The translations under genes and the position numbers were made by a program. Below the pieces are notes generated by a model, which was given only the letters and a program-made list of their open reading frames with translations, was not told the DNA's origin and made no database searches. Below, one piece after another: positions 17,829 through 22,363 of a stretch of DNA of 40,310 bases (position 1 is its first letter; every line of letters starts with the position of its first letter). Source of the stretch: Candidatus Minusculum obligatum. Its GTDB lineage: Bacteria > Patescibacteriota > Minisyncoccia > Phycocordibacterales > Phycocordibacteraceae. The stretch covers positions 376,769 to 417,078 of the forward strand of contig CP174360.1 in NCBI GenBank assembly GCA_045401155.1. Reading direction: 5' to 3'.

Positions 17829-18245
17829 TTACGCTTTCGGTGCAGGGCATTTCTTTAGTGCCACCTTGTGAGCTCCATATACACTGACGTATAGAAGACC
17901 TCCGATGATTGCCGCATTCTTTAGGAATTGGATCATCTGATTTGGATCTTCAAAGTTTGTGTGGAAGATAAGCGTAACCACAATAAGGAATGCTGAGATC
18001 ATAAATGCAGCAAACCGTGTCCAGAGTCCAAATAGGATCATAAGACCACCTCCAAGCTCTACGATGATGGCAATGATGATTGCAATTTCAGGGAAGGGTA
18101 CGTTAAACGCTTGTGCGTATCCTACTGACCCTGCAAAGTCCATAATCTTTCCAATACCACCCATGATAAATAGAGCGGCAATAAGAACTCGTCCTAGCAC
18201 AGGAGCCCATAGCTCGTATCCTTTTGATTCGTGTACGTTAAACAT
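17829..18245 (-). CDS. DoxX family membrane protein
   Basis: 138 aa with 4 TM segments. LGRVLIAALFIMGGIGKI and the overall layout are typical of DoxX. Confidence 0.7.
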   Translation of the reverse strand: MFNVHESKGYELWAPVLGRVLIAALFIMGGIGKIMDFAGSVGYAQAFNVPFPEIAIIIAIIVELGGGLMILFGLWTRFAAFMISAFLIVVTLIFHTNFEDPNQMIQFLKNAAIIGGLLYVSVYGAHKVALKKCPAPKA

Positions 18246-18303
18246 ATTTTTAATTATTTATTGTATGTAGATATTTTATCATTTCGTATATACTCTAGGG
18301 AAT

Positions 18304-19011
18304 ATGAAGATTGGTGTATTTGATTCTGGAATGGGAGGATTTTTGATCCTTGATGCACTTACAAAAGTGCTGCCAGAGTATGATTACGTATTCTATGGAG
18401 ATACAAAAAATCTCCCATATGGAGAAAAGTCTGAAGAAGAAGTACTGGCTCTTTCTAGAAAAGCCTTCAAGTGGCTTTTTGATCGTGATGTGGCACTTGT
18501 TATCGTTGCGTGTAATTCAGTATCTTCAAGCGCCTTAGAATCGCTCACAGAGGATCTTAAAGGCTCAGATAAGAATACTTTTGGTGTAATACTACCTACT
18601 GTAGAAGAAGTTAAAGCTTCTGGACTTAAGGACGTGCTTCTTATTGCTACAACACATACCATTAACTCTAAGAAGTATGACAAAGAGCTTGTTGACTCCT
18701 CTGTTGCACTTACATCGATCCCAACTCCATCTCTAGCATCTCTTATAGAGGGTGGAAAGTATGAAGAAGCTGTAGAGGTTGCCTCAGAAGCGATTTCTAA
18801 AGGGGAGTCAGAAGGGGTTATTTTAGGATGTACGCATTATTCAAAAATAAAAGATGATCTACGTGCACGGTTTCCAGACAAGAAATTTTTCTCACAAGAT
18901 GAAATTATTCCAAATACATTAATTAATTATTTAAATAATAATTCTGAAATTTCAGAAAAACTATCAAGGGGAGGAGGGGTGCAGTGTTATCGAACAGGAA
19001 AGCTATTCTAA
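18304..19011 (+). CDS. murI: glutamate racemase
   Basis: IGVFDSGMGG, the YFGDT-like YGDTKNLPYG, and the catalytic Cys motifs VACNSVSS and GCTHY. Confidence 0.9.
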   Translation: MKIGVFDSGMGGFLILDALTKVLPEYDYVFYGDTKNLPYGEKSEEEVLALSRKAFKWLFDRDVALVIVACNSVSSSALESLTEDLKGSDKNTFGVILPTVEEVKASGLKDVLLIATTHTINSKKYDKELVDSSVALTSIPTPSLASLIEGGKYEEAVEVASEAISKGESEGVILGCTHYSKIKDDLRARFPDKKFFSQDEIIPNTLINYLNNNSEISEKLSRGGGVQCYRTGKLF

Positions 19012-19072
19012 TCCTTTTATTGTTGTTTGGTGGCTTTAATACTATGCGTGTCGCACAATATATCTTTTGCGA

Positions 19073-19252
19073 CTAAGCAGCTTTAACACGCCTTCTTATA
19101 TAAGAATCTGCTTCAGCTTTTGTTGAAGTTGTTTTTGTTGAAGTTCTTTCAAACTTAAAAGTTGCTGAACCAGCATTTACAACAACTGACGCAGCTGGTA
19201 TCCATCTTCCGGTACTTGAATCTTTATATGATTTTGTATTTATTTTTTTCAT
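19073..19252 (-). CDS. hypothetical 59-aa basic Ser/Thr-rich protein, third gene of the lexA operon
   Basis: ATG 19252 lies 4 nt after the stop of the upstream ORF, with AAGGT 8 nt upstream. Sequence is MKKINTKSYKDSSTGRWI...TKAEADSYIRRRVKAA. The TKAEA-type C-terminus is reminiscent of DUF2188-like small proteins (weak, from memory). Confidence 0.5.
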   Translation of the reverse strand: MKKINTKSYKDSSTGRWIPAASVVVNAGSATFKFERTSTKTTSTKAEADSYIRRRVKAA

Positions 19253-19256
19253 ATTT

Positions 19257-19979
19257 TTACCTTGGCTCAATTGTAACACTTCTATTGTTTAAAATTGATT
19301 CTGCCTTGATGTCCACGCAAAGAATTAATTGTGTTACCAAATGATAGTATCTTGAAACTTCTTTTTTAGGTATTGTGTTTTTAAACGATACGCTGTGAAC
19401 AGCAGAATGTCTAAGGCTTAAAAGATTTTTGAGATGCTTGTAAAAAATATTTTGTATGATGACGCAAGTTTTAACATTATCTTGGCCATCTTTGTAAACA
19501 AAACAAAACTTGTTATTTTTCAATTCTTCCAAAAGGTTTTCATTAAAAATTGCTTTTAAGACAGCAAAAGCTTCATCTAGGTTTTGAAAATTAATTACCT
19601 CACGTAATAGTTCACTTTTAGTAATTTTTTTATCTATTATATCCAAAACTCTAGGTAGTGAGTATTTGGCAGTTTTCCCGCTAAATTTAACTTCTTGAAG
19701 TCTTTGTATTATTTCTCCAGAGTCCGTGTTCTCGCTCTCAAGTAGTTCACAAACAATATCAGCAAAATAAACTTCAAGAGAAGTTATGAGCGACACTATA
19801 AATTGCTTACGACCTTCTGCAATAGTGTCGCGCTTACCTTTCCCTTTATATTTTTCAACTTGTCTGTGGACGTTCCAAATCGCATCAGATTTTCTGTGAA
19901 AAGAAGAAAAGGGTCGTGCAGACCTGCTTTGTCTTGCAAGCCTTTCTTCAATTATTCTTTCTATTGCCCATTCCTGCAC
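19257..19979 (-). CDS. HEPN-like predicted RNase (R-x4-H motif), second gene of the lexA operon
   Basis: GTG 19979 lies 3 nt after the lexA stop. The 240-aa sequence looks mostly helical. It has LSLR190-HSAV-H195S near the C-terminus (codons 19395-19412) and an upstream SLEVYFADIV helix, as in RiboL-PSP/Abi-type HEPN families. The gene is AT-rich. Confidence 0.5.
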   Translation of the reverse strand: MQEWAIERIIEERLARQSRSARPFSSFHRKSDAIWNVHRQVEKYKGKGKRDTIAEGRKQFIVSLITSLEVYFADIVCELLESENTDSGEIIQRLQEVKFSGKTAKYSLPRVLDIIDKKITKSELLREVINFQNLDEAFAVLKAIFNENLLEELKNNKFCFVYKDGQDNVKTCVIIQNIFYKHLKNLLSLRHSAVHSVSFKNTIPKKEVSRYYHLVTQLILCVDIKAESILNNRSVTIEPR

Positions 19980-19982
19980 AAT

Positions 19983-20633
19983 TTACTTCTTCTTAATAAT
20001 ATCAATCACCTTCCCGCTAATCTGGAAGTCATCCTCAGGATGAATCATGATAGGTGTATATGACTCTGTAGAATCAGCCTCTAGAAGGATACGCTCCTCT
20101 TCCCTGTCGAGCTTGTATCTTTTGATAGTTGCCATACCATCAATTACGGCAACAATAATGTCTCCATCTTTAGGAACAATCTGAGATTTGTCCACGATCA
20201 CAAAGTCACCATCCTCAATGGTTAGATTTCCACGTACTTTTGCCTTATTCATTGAAGATCCACTTGCTACAAGCGCATATAGGTCCTGACGACGCTTTGG
20301 AAGCAATGTGGAAGATACTTTTAGGTACCCTTCAGTACGCTCTTCAGCAAAGATGGTCTGTGGTCCACAGTTAGCGGCTCCCACGATAGGAATTGAGTAG
20401 AATACGCTCTTAACGCCTTCAGCAAATCCTCGCTTCACAGGCTTAATCACTCCTTTAGCTAGATCTAGTTGAATAAGACCCGCTTTTTCTAGTTGTCCCA
20501 AGTGGTACTTAACAACCTGAGGTTTTCCTTCCTGGCCAATAAATTTAGCAATCTGTCGGAGACTATGTACTCCAAGATCTGCTTTCTTACGACTTTTAAT
20601 AAGGGTTAATAGCTGTGCTTGTGTTTCGTGCAT
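19983..20633 (-). CDS. lexA: LexA repressor (wHTH + S24 peptidase)
   Basis: N-terminal LexA-type wHTH (LRQIAKFIG...VKYHLGQLEKAGLIQLD). S24 domain with the Ser nucleophile in GSSM (S127) and the Lys in TIKRY (K171). Linker is VGAANCGP. Confidence 0.85.
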   Translation of the reverse strand: MHETQAQLLTLIKSRKKADLGVHSLRQIAKFIGQEGKPQVVKYHLGQLEKAGLIQLDLAKGVIKPVKRGFAEGVKSVFYSIPIVGAANCGPQTIFAEERTEGYLKVSSTLLPKRRQDLYALVASGSSMNKAKVRGNLTIEDGDFVIVDKSQIVPKDGDIIVAVIDGMATIKRYKLDREEERILLEADSTESYTPIMIHPEDDFQISGKVIDIIKKK

Positions 20634-20641
20634 ATACGTAA

Positions 20642-20669
20642 AGTATATACGGGGTGTAAAGAGTGTAAA
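20642..20669 (-). promoter_or_regulatory. lexA promoter (TTTACA - 16 nt - TATACT) with embedded repeats
   Basis: -10 at 20642-20647 lies 8 nt from ATG 20633; -35 at 20664-20669. Three tandem 9-mers GTGTAAAGA/GTGTAAATA/GTGTATATG span 20654-20680. An ATATAC-N5-GTATAT inverted repeat lies at 20632-20648. Confidence 0.5.
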
Positions 20670-20690
20670 TAGTGTATATGGGGATAGTAA

Positions 20691-21173
20691 TTATGCGTCC
20701 CACATATCAAATATTTCTCCATCTATAGCGTATTCAATAGAATTAATGCTTTCAAATTGCAGCATTGTTTTTTCAATAGATTCTTTAATTAAAAGTTGTT
20801 CAAATGCAGGAGCATTTAGATATGTAAGTGCTGGCTTTCTAAAATAGAGCACTGCTCTCCCCTCCTCTATTTCTAGCTTTTCATATGTCTCTATAAGAGA
20901 TAGTTCATTTTCATGAATAAATGGAGAAAAGTATCCAACCTCCTGAGACTTTGGTCCCTCTAGAAGAAGTGTGAGTGTCTTTTCTTCTACATGCTCAGTG
21001 TCTTTTGGTAAAGATCGCAATACAGGAGCTTGTATAGGCTCCAGATTCTCATTCTCTAATGGGAAGTAGAGTGCTACGCGGATATCATCCGCTTGCTTTT
21101 GATGATAGATAAAATAGTTAAACCCAAAGAACAACACAACACCTGCAATAAGTACGTATAGTGTTTTCATCAT
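20691..21173 (-). CDS. GerMN domain-containing membrane-anchored protein
   Basis: N-terminal TM helix and a GerMN-like body (VLRSLPKD...LLLEGPKSQE...AVLYF...SIEYAIDGE). Start set to ATG 21173 by analogy with the lexA promoter geometry. Confidence 0.6.
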   Translation of the reverse strand: MMKTLYVLIAGVVLFFGFNYFIYHQKQADDIRVALYFPLENENLEPIQAPVLRSLPKDTEHVEEKTLTLLLEGPKSQEVGYFSPFIHENELSLIETYEKLEIEEGRAVLYFRKPALTYLNAPAFEQLLIKESIEKTMLQFESINSIEYAIDGEIFDMWDA

Positions 21174-21190
21174 ATACATAAAGTATACAT

Positions 21191-21222
21191 CAAAATAAAA
21201 GAGCGCCTTTGATATAGCGCTC
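21191..21222 (-). terminator. intrinsic terminator (minus strand)
   Basis: Stem gagcgc (21201-21206) / gcgctc (21217-21222). On the minus strand it is followed by TTTTATTTTG (21200-21191). Confidence 0.7.
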
Positions 21223-21287
21223 CCACAATTTATTTGTTCATTTTTATAGTTGAATCTCTTTATGCAACTTACCTTACCAAGAGGCCC

Positions 21288-21473
21288 TTAGGCCTTCTTG
21301 CTTGTCTTATTTCGGTTTTTGCCGAAAAGGTAATCGAGGTCTTCGTCTGTGACGAGACCGAAGTGTTGGTCAGCAGGACCGCACAACTCTTCCATGAGCT
21401 TCTCAAGCCACCCGCCGTCTTTGAAGGCGGGTGTCGTGGAAGAAACCCTGCCTTTTTTACCTCTGGTTTTCAT
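21288..21473 (-). CDS. hypothetical 61-aa protein (GC-rich islet)
   Basis: ATG 21473 with GAGGAG (21484-21489) 10 nt upstream; a terminator lies at 21191-21222. Sequence is MKTRGKKGRVSS...DLDYLFGKNRNKTSKKA. No family recognised. Confidence 0.4.
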   Translation of the reverse strand: MKTRGKKGRVSSTTPAFKDGGWLEKLMEELCGPADQHFGLVTDEDLDYLFGKNRNKTSKKA

Positions 21474-21540
21474 TAGAGATCATCTCCTCTTCATCTAAAA
21501 GAACAGATGCAAGAGTACAATATATATTTATGTTGTCAAT

Positions 21541-21570
21541 AAAAAGAGGAGGATCACGTAGATCCTCCTC
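21541..21570 (-). terminator. intrinsic terminator (minus strand)
   Basis: Perfect 10-bp stem gaggaggatc (21546-21555) / gatcctcctc (21561-21570) with a 5-nt loop. On the minus strand it is followed by TTTTT (21545-21541). Confidence 0.75.
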
Positions 21571-21596
21571 AAGGTGTCCATCTCGCCAAAGATGGG

Positions 21597-21728
21597 TTAC
21601 TTCGAACGCCGTTTCTGACGGAAGCGGGGTTCCCGCCCCTTCGTATATCCCGTATCCCGCGGCTGTGCCATGTCGCCCGGCTGCGGACCCTTCGTGAGAT
21701 CGACGTCAGAGTCTTTCGAAATGTTCAA
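21597..21728 (-). CDS. hypothetical 43-aa basic protein (not in the ORF track; TTG start)
   Basis: Hand translation gives (M)NISKDSDVDLTKGPQPGDMAQPRDTGYTKGREPRFRQKRRSK, ending at stop TAA (21597-21599). GGAGG (21734-21738) lies 5 nt upstream of TTG 21728. A private terminator lies at 21541-21570. Hand count gives about 62% G+C in 21601-21660. Confidence 0.3.
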   Translation of the reverse strand: MNISKDSDVDLTKGPQPGDMAQPRDTGYTKGREPRFRQKRRSK

Positions 21729-21793
21729 TGCAACCTCCCCTTATTTGGTGCAGAGGCACTTTATAATACAAAACCAAATACCACGCAAGTGGA

Positions 21794-22363
21794 TTAAAAG
21801 GCTGATTCTCCTTCAAAATCAGGCTCAACAATTGCCCATTGCCGTGATTCAGGAACAAGCTTTAAGTATACGCTCTTCCCTTCTGAAGGCTGCTCGCTCA
21901 TAGATTGTCCTTCTGCTCTATCTGCATAATTAAATACCACCACGTACTTGTGTCGTAGATTTGGACTTACATTTGTAGACTGTGGAGCAATACGATCCCC
22001 AAGGAAATATGCATCATGTGTTCCTACGTATCCTTTCTCCGTACTTAGTGCCGCAACAGCATAGAAGAAAGTTCCAGACCCTCCTGTTTCTTGCGTCAAA
22101 ATAAATGCCACGTCTTCATCTCCATCTCCGTCTAGATCTGTAAACAATTCATTTCCAAAAAATCTTGTGACTACAGATGCAGCAGAGTTTTTAATGGGAG
22201 TTTCAGAAACGCCATTTACGAGTGTTACTTTCTCTCCATCAATGATGTATGAGGTATTTTTATAATCAAATCCAGCTTCATCTTCTACCGTGTCATTGCG
22301 CAAAATAAAGTATCCTCCAAATACAATACCGATAAAGATGAGTGCGCTGATTGCTGTTTTCAT
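21794..22363 (-). CDS. hypothetical membrane-anchored/secreted protein
   Basis: N-terminal TM/signal segment and a DLDGDGDEDV acidic loop. No family recognised. Confidence 0.5.
   Translation of the reverse strand: MKTAISALIFIGIVFGGYFILRNDTVEDEAGFDYKNTSYIIDGEKVTLVNGVSETPIKNSAASVVTRFFGNELFTDLDGDGDEDVAFILTQETGGSGTFFYAVAALSTEKGYVGTHDAYFLGDRIAPQSTNVSPNLRHKYVVVFNYADRAEGQSMSEQPSEGKSVYLKLVPESRQWAIVEPDFEGESAF

Follow-up and report, generated by a model that had tools for sequence, protein, structure and literature searches.

Does a putative ribonuclease toxin gene that stands directly behind a lexA gene belong to a dedicated SOS-triggered system, or does it owe its position to chance? This question is raised by three minus-strand genes in a 40,310-nucleotide stretch of the Candidatus Minusculum obligatum genome (contig CP174360.1, positions 376,769 to 417,078; hereafter "the window"). 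They encode a LexA-like protein, a HEPN protein of 240 aa and a protein of 59 aa (hereafter "mini"). A first-pass annotation, made from the sequence alone, had read them as a LexA-HEPN-miniprotein system in which DNA damage would release an RNase effector. All its coordinates, including the R190/H195 codons, were verified (Table 1). Comparison with related strains and with homologues in other genomes leads us to another reading. The conserved unit is the HEPN-mini pair, which resembles toxin-antitoxin (TA) or abortive infection (Abi) modules, and its link to LexA is a strain-specific accident rather than a conserved SOS-triggered system.

The HEPN protein

The 240-aa protein matches PF18735 (HEPN_RiboL-PSP) over residues 57-225 with a score of 34.7 bits (E-value = 2.2e-8), above the gathering threshold of 28.4. 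The same family model is matched by 45 of 48 aligned homologues. An exhaustive phmmer search of 1.84 billion representative proteins returned 82 homologues, nearly all of them solo proteins of 215-250 aa. A word-index search with the HEPN protein returned only the query, and the same search with an eight-sequence profile returned four proteins. The PDB yielded no match in a sequence search with either the single sequence or a profile.

The sole residues invariant among the 48 aligned homologues are E69, R190 and H195. The family consensus motif is LRHxxVHD, and R[HN]xxxH is found in nearly all of the 82 homologues. An AlphaFold model built from the homologue alignment is mostly helical and of high confidence (pLDDT 94.7, pTM 0.91). 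Submitted to Foldseek, this model matched in BFVD a phage "MAE-28990/MAE-18760-like HEPN domain-containing protein" (probability 1.0, TM 0.54/0.61, E-value = 5e-3). Judged by its sequence, the protein is a RiboL-PSP-type HEPN with a conserved R-x4-H, and it is predicted to be a metal-independent endoribonuclease using E69, R190 and H195. The family guess made in the first-pass annotation thus proved right, the PF18735 score being above threshold. The two residues whose conservation it had wished to see checked, R190 and H195, are invariant in the 48 homologues.

Decayed copies of the family were seen at two loci (homologous loci are cited as L001 to L020; coordinates in Table 1). In L010 a frameshift splits the gene into two overlapping ORFs. 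In L011 the C-terminal half stands alone, beside a 188-aa ORF that contains an HLHLF motif and, by eye, looks like an IS200/IS605-type transposase.

HEPN domains are not always toxic: some work in RNA processing or are non-catalytic (PMC3710099). The protein could accordingly be a benign RNA-processing or RNA-binding factor with mini as its cofactor, and the housekeeping neighbourhood of the locus would suit such a role. We hold this to be highly improbable. The catalytic triad-like residues are invariant, and the family is patchy, with 82 representatives in the 1.84 billion proteins and presence or absence varying at strain level. Furthermore the frameshifted copy of L010, the truncated copy of L011 and the defence-island context of L015-L017 (see below) are hallmarks of conflict systems and not of housekeeping genes.

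The small partner

The mini protein exhibits no match in Pfam, NCBIfam, PHROGs, PADLOC or the PDB (for the latter a profile search is included), in line with the first-pass statement that the third gene belongs to no recognised family. In Pfam no match was listed up to E-value 10, a range in which the HMMER filters drop most matches above about 0.1. A resemblance to DUF1508/YegP-like units has no Pfam match and is not claimed here. Foldseek with the low-confidence model of mini returned only noise.

Homologous ORFs of 62-65 aa (BLASTP E-value = 4e-11) are located directly 3' of the HEPN gene in the three closest HEPN-homologue loci. The mini gene begins 4 nt past the HEPN stop codon in the window and 2 nt past it in L007 (homologue P0122). 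It overlaps the HEPN stop by 4 nt both in L018 and L019 (P0123) and in L020 (P0125). The flanking genes are unrelated. In a comparison of the four mini sequences, residues G15, W17, I18, P19, K45, E47, A48 and D49 are invariant, and the family motifs can be written G-[RK]-W-I-P and K-x-E-A-D. By this comparison mini is a real conserved gene of a family not described before. Since a mini homologue follows the HEPN gene in the three closest loci, the HEPN-mini pair is the conserved, TA/Abi-like unit. Its layout is that of type II-like TA systems, with small co-oriented genes that are adjacent or overlapping and stay paired across contexts. What the sequences say is that selection keeps HEPN together with mini but not with LexA. 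Just 3' of the HEPN-mini pair of L018 there is a HicB-like antitoxin gene, so that two TA-like modules are clustered at this locus.

Another branch of the family carries no mini gene. A profile search with the alignment of the HEPN subfamily returned one genome locus and three metagenome loci, all of this branch. In L012-L014 the HEPN gene (P0127) follows the gene of a 190-aa membrane protein with a spacing of 1 nt. In L015-L017 the gene (P0203) is located between two membrane-protein genes. The genes nearby encode Cap15 (an effector of the cyclic oligonucleotide-based anti-phage signalling system, CBASS), DUF2779, an AAA_15/AAA_21 ATPase and a large serine recombinase of 554 aa, and this region is defence-island-like.

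Comparison of the lexA loci

None of nine other HEPN-homologue contexts exhibits an S24 gene upstream of the HEPN gene. The sequence found there is 277 nt of non-coding DNA in L007, the end of a Cys-rich small ORF in L019, and in L020 a tRNA-Gln gene (ending 26 nt 5' of the HEPN gene) together with a divergent membrane-protein gene. We also compared six lexA-orthologue loci (L001-L006), the LexA proteins of which are 85-98% identical to that of the window. No HEPN or mini gene is present at any of the six, including the one with a 98% identical LexA (L004). In L002 and L003 lexA is followed directly by doxX, and in L006 by a convergent murI and then doxX. In L001, a DUF1153 gene, a ParB-like gene and a Trans_reg_C gene precede doxX. 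In L004 the next gene, which starts 5 nt past the lexA stop, encodes an unrelated protein of 260 aa that has a membrane segment at its N-terminus. The lexA gene of L005 is overlapped by 11 nt by the gene of another unrelated protein, at least 360 aa long and containing the R-x4-H-like string ELRTRRNIIVH. The slot 3' of lexA is thus empty in L002, L003 and L006, and holds unrelated cargo in L001, L004 and L005. The cargoes of L004 and L005 were tried as kin of the HEPN protein and rejected, no significant similarity being obtained by BLASTP or hhalign (hhalign probability 0.18% for L005).

These comparisons bear directly on the reading of the three genes as a dedicated, SOS-wired growth-arrest or Abi system in which the LexA link is kept by selection. 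In its favour, three tightly packed genes have a single promoter-like site, and the cassette is placed within the transcription unit of lexA, ahead of a conserved 28-bp site described below. The cargo of L004 (at 5 nt) and of L005 (with its 11-nt overlap and its RRNIIVH) even hints at repeated recruitment to lexA control. However, the absence of an upstream S24 gene in all nine HEPN-homologue contexts and of HEPN or mini at all six lexA loci, one with a 98% identical LexA among them, renders this reading decidedly improbable. So do the empty slot in three relatives and the lack of a detectable HEPN relationship for the L005 protein (hhalign probability 0.18%). Tight spacing also loses its weight as an argument: same-strand neighbours in the window are separated by a median of 4 nt, and 20 of 35 such pairs by at most 5 nt. 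Near-fusion of genes is therefore the norm of this genome and no mark of a special relationship. The first-pass annotation had described three almost fused genes sharing one promoter region; the layout and the single promoter-like site stand, and the tightness turns out to be ordinary here. Its proposal of a LexA-HEPN-miniprotein system is not supported: linkage of the family to lexA or S24 genes, the lack of which it had itself named as refuting, is not seen among the loci compared (0/9 and 0/6).

The upstream side of lexA is variable too. Between msrA and lexA, the window exhibits a Germane-domain gene (162 aa) and a 189-aa gene of unknown function. Both are absent from L001, L002, L003 and L006, and the Germane gene is present in L005.

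The insertion and the dif-like site

The HEPN-mini cassette has a GC content of 0.332 against 0.415 for the window, which places it in the lowest 1.3% of 907-bp windows, and it is absent at the same position in all six related strains. It fills the exact space between the lexA stop codon and a 28-bp element. The insert begins at most 3 nt before the GTG of the HEPN gene, without upstream DNA of its own.

The 28-bp element, the first three bases of which are the TAG of mini, is a dif-like palindrome, T[T/A]GTCGCAAAA GATATA TTGTGCGACAC, in which inverted arms of about 11 nt each flank a centre of 6 nt (TTGTCGCAAAA-GATATA-TTGTGCGACAC). Written as TTGTCG[C/T]AAAAGATATATTGTGCGACAC, it is found 14-55 nt past the lexA stop in L002, L003 and L006; in L001 it is located after the cargo. 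A block of 26 nt is invariant in the window, L001, L002, L003 and L006, amid diverging flanks, and occurs only once in the window. At 19000 the cumulative G-C skew of the window reaches its maximum, and gene orientation converges at this point. Because of this architecture, invariance and uniqueness, and because of the skew peak and the converging genes, the palindrome is probably a chromosomal dif/Xer site at the replication terminus. We also considered the palindrome as an intrinsic terminator and rejected it: it lacks a U-tract, its loop sequence does not vary, and it forms no stable RNA hairpin (fold z-score -0.72).

A module moved by Xer recombination, such as the integrative mobile elements exploiting Xer (IMEX), is flanked by two Xer sites. 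At this locus a single dif-like site is recognisable. No second dif-like site was found at the lexA-side junction, where the best candidate agrees at 15 of 28 positions, within background, and no Xer gene occurs within the window. With one recognisable site, homologous exchange through the conserved flanks is as good a candidate for the mechanism of insertion as the Xer/dif route. In L001, a degenerate second dif-like copy (18/28, right arm intact) stands in tandem just upstream of the intact site, recalling the duplicated sites left by Xer-mediated integration.

The gap between lexA and the dif-like site may have a more general role, as a cassette-exchange slot in which diverse promoterless cargo is swapped and thereby comes under a lexA promoter that responds to DNA damage. 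Such a slot is supported by the finding, among seven strains, of three different cargoes that are all tightly coupled (HEPN + mini, the 260-aa membrane-anchored protein and the RRNIIVH protein of at least 360 aa). The sample is small, and we regard this generalisation as clearly unlikely.

The LexA-like repressor and the expression signals

The first gene encodes a protein with a Peptidase_S24 domain (E-value = 2.9e-21) and a weak N-terminal winged helix-turn-helix (wHTH), with matches to LexA_DNA_bind (E-value = 0.14) and HTH_20 (E-value = 2.8e-4). Its score against TIGR00498, the NCBIfam lexA equivalog, is 87.2 bits, below the cut-off of 110.95. We use the label "LexA-like" on account of this score and of the weak LexA_DNA_bind match. 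Relatives number 562 at E-value ≤1e-10, and the named ones are from Patescibacteria or Kaiserbacteria. An alignment of 21 orthologues exhibits an invariant VG[AS]ANCGP segment and invariant Ser127 and Lys171. The gene had been called a convincing LexA in the first-pass annotation, of which the S24 domain with S127 and K171 is upheld, whereas the cut-off of TIGR00498 is missed and the wHTH is weak. Cys89-Gly90, also invariant in the 21 orthologues, is located at the place of the LexA Ala-Gly bond. The cleavage site of UmuD is Cys-Gly, and self-cleavage of the LexA-like protein at Cys89-Gly90 is plausible by this analogy. As far as the alignments tell, the gene encodes a lineage-conserved LexA-like S24 autoprotease repressor.

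The HEPN start codon follows the lexA stop after 3 nt (ATT). Homologue alignment backs the start codons of the two downstream genes, GTG for HEPN and ATG for mini. The sequence TTTACA-16-TATACT, directly 5' of the lexA-like gene, is the best sigma-70-like site in 18200-21300 (10/12 consensus positions) and the sole good one on the minus strand. The region of this site is kept upstream of the lexA orthologues. No terminator-like site was found between the lexA-like, HEPN and mini genes. Given this gene layout, all three are probably co-transcribed from the lexA promoter. The -10 element ends 8 nt before the ATG, in the window and in the orthologous loci, and therefore the lexA mRNA would be leaderless or nearly so.

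The TTTACACTNTTKACA element overlaps the -35 element. It also precedes lexA in L002-L006, and the window contains it nowhere else. Its repeats constitute a candidate LexA operator; promoter conservation alone could account for them.

The pair may also be expressed independently of LexA, from a promoter that happens to lie within the 3' end of lexA or constitutively, at the basal level of lexA, and would then be an ordinary selfish TA/Abi module for which the position is irrelevant. HEPN-mini pairs elsewhere are indeed free-standing (L007, L019, L020), and autoregulated lexA operons exhibit appreciable basal transcription. However, no minus-strand promoter-like site was found within 19980-20630, and the insert, starting at most 3 nt before the GTG, brought no promoter. 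We consider this explanation unlikely, with an appreciable chance nonetheless.

Proposed explanation

The overall picture that we favour, and consider fairly probable, is that of a horizontally acquired cassette of a HEPN RNase and its partner within the lexA transcription unit. The cassette would have been acquired by one Patescibacteria strain. It would have landed in a slot whose content differs from strain to strain, and which is bounded on one side by the lexA stop codon and on the other, at the probable replication terminus, by the dif-like site. Since the cassette came without upstream DNA and is placed within the lexA unit, a transcript begun at the lexA promoter would cover lexA, HEPN and mini by read-through. 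The HEPN gene would be translated by coupling to the end of lexA (TAA, 3 nt, GTG), and mini by coupling to the HEPN gene. The mini protein would bind and restrain the HEPN protein, as in a TA or Abi pair. Upon RecA activation by DNA damage or phage, the LexA-like protein would cleave itself and both proteins would increase, the RNase acting once its small partner is titrated or degraded. We propose this SOS-raised expression by analogy with HEPN toxins of the RnlA/RnlB type and with LexA-regulated TA operons. SOS-inducible read-through from the lexA promoter is thus plausible in this strain. RNase activity, toxicity, neutralisation by mini and LexA control of the promoter are functions that we infer.

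Several points weigh against this explanation. The functional roles of all HEPN-family members are predicted from sequence. Foldseek gave no significant match of the HEPN model to the PDB (best E-value 0.18; the HEPN toxin 7bxo_F at probability 0.30). The structural check suggested in the first-pass annotation thus gave a confident, mostly helical model and a phage HEPN match in BFVD, but no significant PDB match. No model of PADLOC-DB 2.0 matches the HEPN protein, the mini protein or the homologues P0122 and P0203. The single-sequence model of mini (pLDDT 65) consists of several short strands and a C-terminal helix, with no recognisable fold. The isoelectric points of the mini family range from 5.8 to 10.6, the basic charge not being kept. 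Mini may be an antitoxin or a regulator of HEPN; as its charge is not conserved, the antitoxin role is only the most economical guess. The HEPN-mini sample beyond the window comprises three loci, all on short contigs. The distant HEPN homologues lack mini, being located beside small membrane proteins (L012-L017) or standing solo (L008, L009), and the partner is therefore subfamily-specific. Finally, read-through is predicted from consensus scans alone, and there may be a promoter inside the lexA 3' end.

Surroundings of the locus

Pfam scans of further ORFs in the window assigned all of them to housekeeping or unknown functions. The neighbourhood proteins include DnaB, RecR, several aminoacyl-tRNA synthetases, MurG, FtsW, ScpA/B and MsrA, as well as a NUDIX protein, a LOG-family protein and RNase T. 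The 40-kb window contains no integrase, transposase or phage gene, as the first-pass annotation had noted for the vicinity of the three genes. Searches by tblastn for relatives of the HEPN protein in phage records, plasmid records and IMG/VR found none. With no phage, plasmid or IMG/VR relative and no phage gene in the window, a prophage or plasmid origin is unsupported.

Rfam gave no match on 18000-22000. A GC-rich segment of about 200 nt (0.59 vs 0.41), without a long ORF, ends in a strong stem-loop and U-tract (GAGGAGGAUC...GAUCCUCCUCUUUUU); its fold z-score is -2.6, and it has no Rfam match. This segment may be an undescribed structured RNA. It is followed by a 61-aa ORF with its own promoter-like and terminator-like sites.

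Table 1. Positions of the features discussed, in the window and in homologous loci.
Feature	Locus	Position	Strand	Basis or remark
lexA-like gene, 216 aa	window	19983-20633	minus	stop TAA 19983-19985
HEPN gene, 240 aa	window	19257-19979	minus	start GTG 19979; stop TAA 19257-19259
R-x4-H signature, codons of R190-H-S-A-V-H195	window	19395-19412	minus	homologue alignment
mini gene, 59 aa	window	19073-19252	minus	start ATG 19252 with AAGG 5' of it; stop TAG 19073-19075
Inserted cassette, HEPN + mini	window	19073-19982	minus	low GC, synteny, junctions
28-bp dif-like palindrome	window	19048-19075	none	distal boundary of the insertion
Promoter-like site of lexA	window	20642-20669	minus	consensus scan
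Candidate LexA operator	window	20655-20678	minus	three direct T[A/T]TACAC repeats, 9-nt spacing, over the -35 element
Germane-domain gene and 189-aa gene	window	20691-21179 and 21794-22363	minus	
61-aa ORF	window	21288-21473		
GC-rich segment	window	~21545-21745	minus	
28-bp element	L001	8786-8813		
28-bp element	L002	6666-6693		
28-bp element	L003	6660-6687		
28-bp element	L006	1872-1899		
Degenerate dif-like copy	L001	8759-8786		
Slot 3' of lexA	L001	6730-8705		
Gene of 260-aa protein	L004	2014-2796		
Gene of protein of at least 360 aa	L005	6100-7179		
Frameshifted HEPN-family gene	L010	3839-4502		
Truncated HEPN-family gene	L011	233-1199		
Region around P0203	L015-L017	1-8045		
HicB-like antitoxin gene	L018	1119-1355		
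tRNA-Gln gene	L020	678-749		

Implications

The HEPN family, HEPN toxin pairs and SOS-regulated toxins are already known. What is new at this locus is the small partner family, and the presence of a HEPN pair inside a lexA operon beside a dif-like site. A two-gene HEPN module is now defined, the partner being a protein of about 60 aa with the motifs GxWIP and KxEAD, and E69, R190 and H195 are the residues to mutate. The locus also teaches that tight packing in the streamlined genomes of the Candidate Phyla Radiation (CPR, Patescibacteria) can mimic a dedicated operon: the LexA link is striking in a single sequence, and dissolved upon comparison with relatives.

Should the slot really subject swapped cargo to SOS control, it would offer a simple natural platform for expression, in organisms of which the SOS response and defence are almost uncharted, and it would be a cheap target for a comparative survey. 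If it is indeed an exchange slot, it would provide strain-specific SOS-induced effectors, and HEPN + mini would be a new TA or Abi family among them.

Comparison with known systems

The RiboL-PSP-HEPN family is characterised by an Rx4-6H motif, is at times fused to endoRNase L-PSP, and is distantly related to AbiD/AbiF (Anantharaman et al. 2013, PMC3710099). The window protein is like this family (PF18735) in that it passes the family hidden Markov model (HMM) and carries the R-x4-H, and its core is modelled as mostly helical. However, the contexts that gave the family its name, namely the fusion to endoRNase L-PSP and the operon with ParB, are missing from it. It is an unfused protein of 240 aa, accompanied by a small partner that is encoded downstream; no such partner has been described for RiboL-PSP-HEPN.

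PF18735 HEPN domains are present in the validated defence genes PD-T4-2, PD-T4-5, PD-T7-3 and ApeA (reviewed in PMC10952713). PD-T4-5 works by abortive infection in a TA-like manner, and is a distant relative of AbiF/D (PMC9519451). The window protein shares with these genes, and with AbiD/AbiF, a HEPN domain of the PF18735 type or related to it. Yet neither the window protein nor its homologues are matched by the PADLOC models of these systems, and no phage or plasmid relative was found. The protein is therefore, by these models, not a member of the PD-T4-2, PD-T4-5, PD-T7-3 or ApeA systems.

Acinetobacter dif modules often carry TA genes beside dif sites (PMC6449649, PMC12907356). The Xer/dif modules of Acinetobacter and IMEX resemble the present locus in having a small accessory module directly beside a dif-like palindrome of 11-6-11 architecture at the terminus. 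They differ from it in that here a single site is recognisable, the lexA-side junction being at background level (15/28), and no Xer gene is found in the window.

SOS-regulated toxins are exemplified by tisB, symE and the operon dinB-yafNOP. In E. coli, TA operons are among the members of the LexA regulon (PMC2701414). The likeness of these modules to the present locus is that of a toxin gene under a LexA-repressed promoter, the expression of which is raised by DNA damage. Unlike in E. coli, the putative toxin pair is here in the lexA operon itself, as an apparently recent insertion with an unconserved link and a candidate operator.

The HEPN toxins RnlA and LsoA, which are mRNases, are bound and inhibited by small labile proteins from adjacent genes (PMC3710099). 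Neither RnlA-RnlB nor LsoA-LsoB is related in sequence to the present pair: RnlA exhibits additional N-terminal domains, and the mini proteins (59-65 aa) are unrelated to RnlB. The common feature is a HEPN RNase with an adjacent small protein, and by this analogy RnlA-RnlB and LsoA-LsoB provide the working model for how HEPN and mini may act together.

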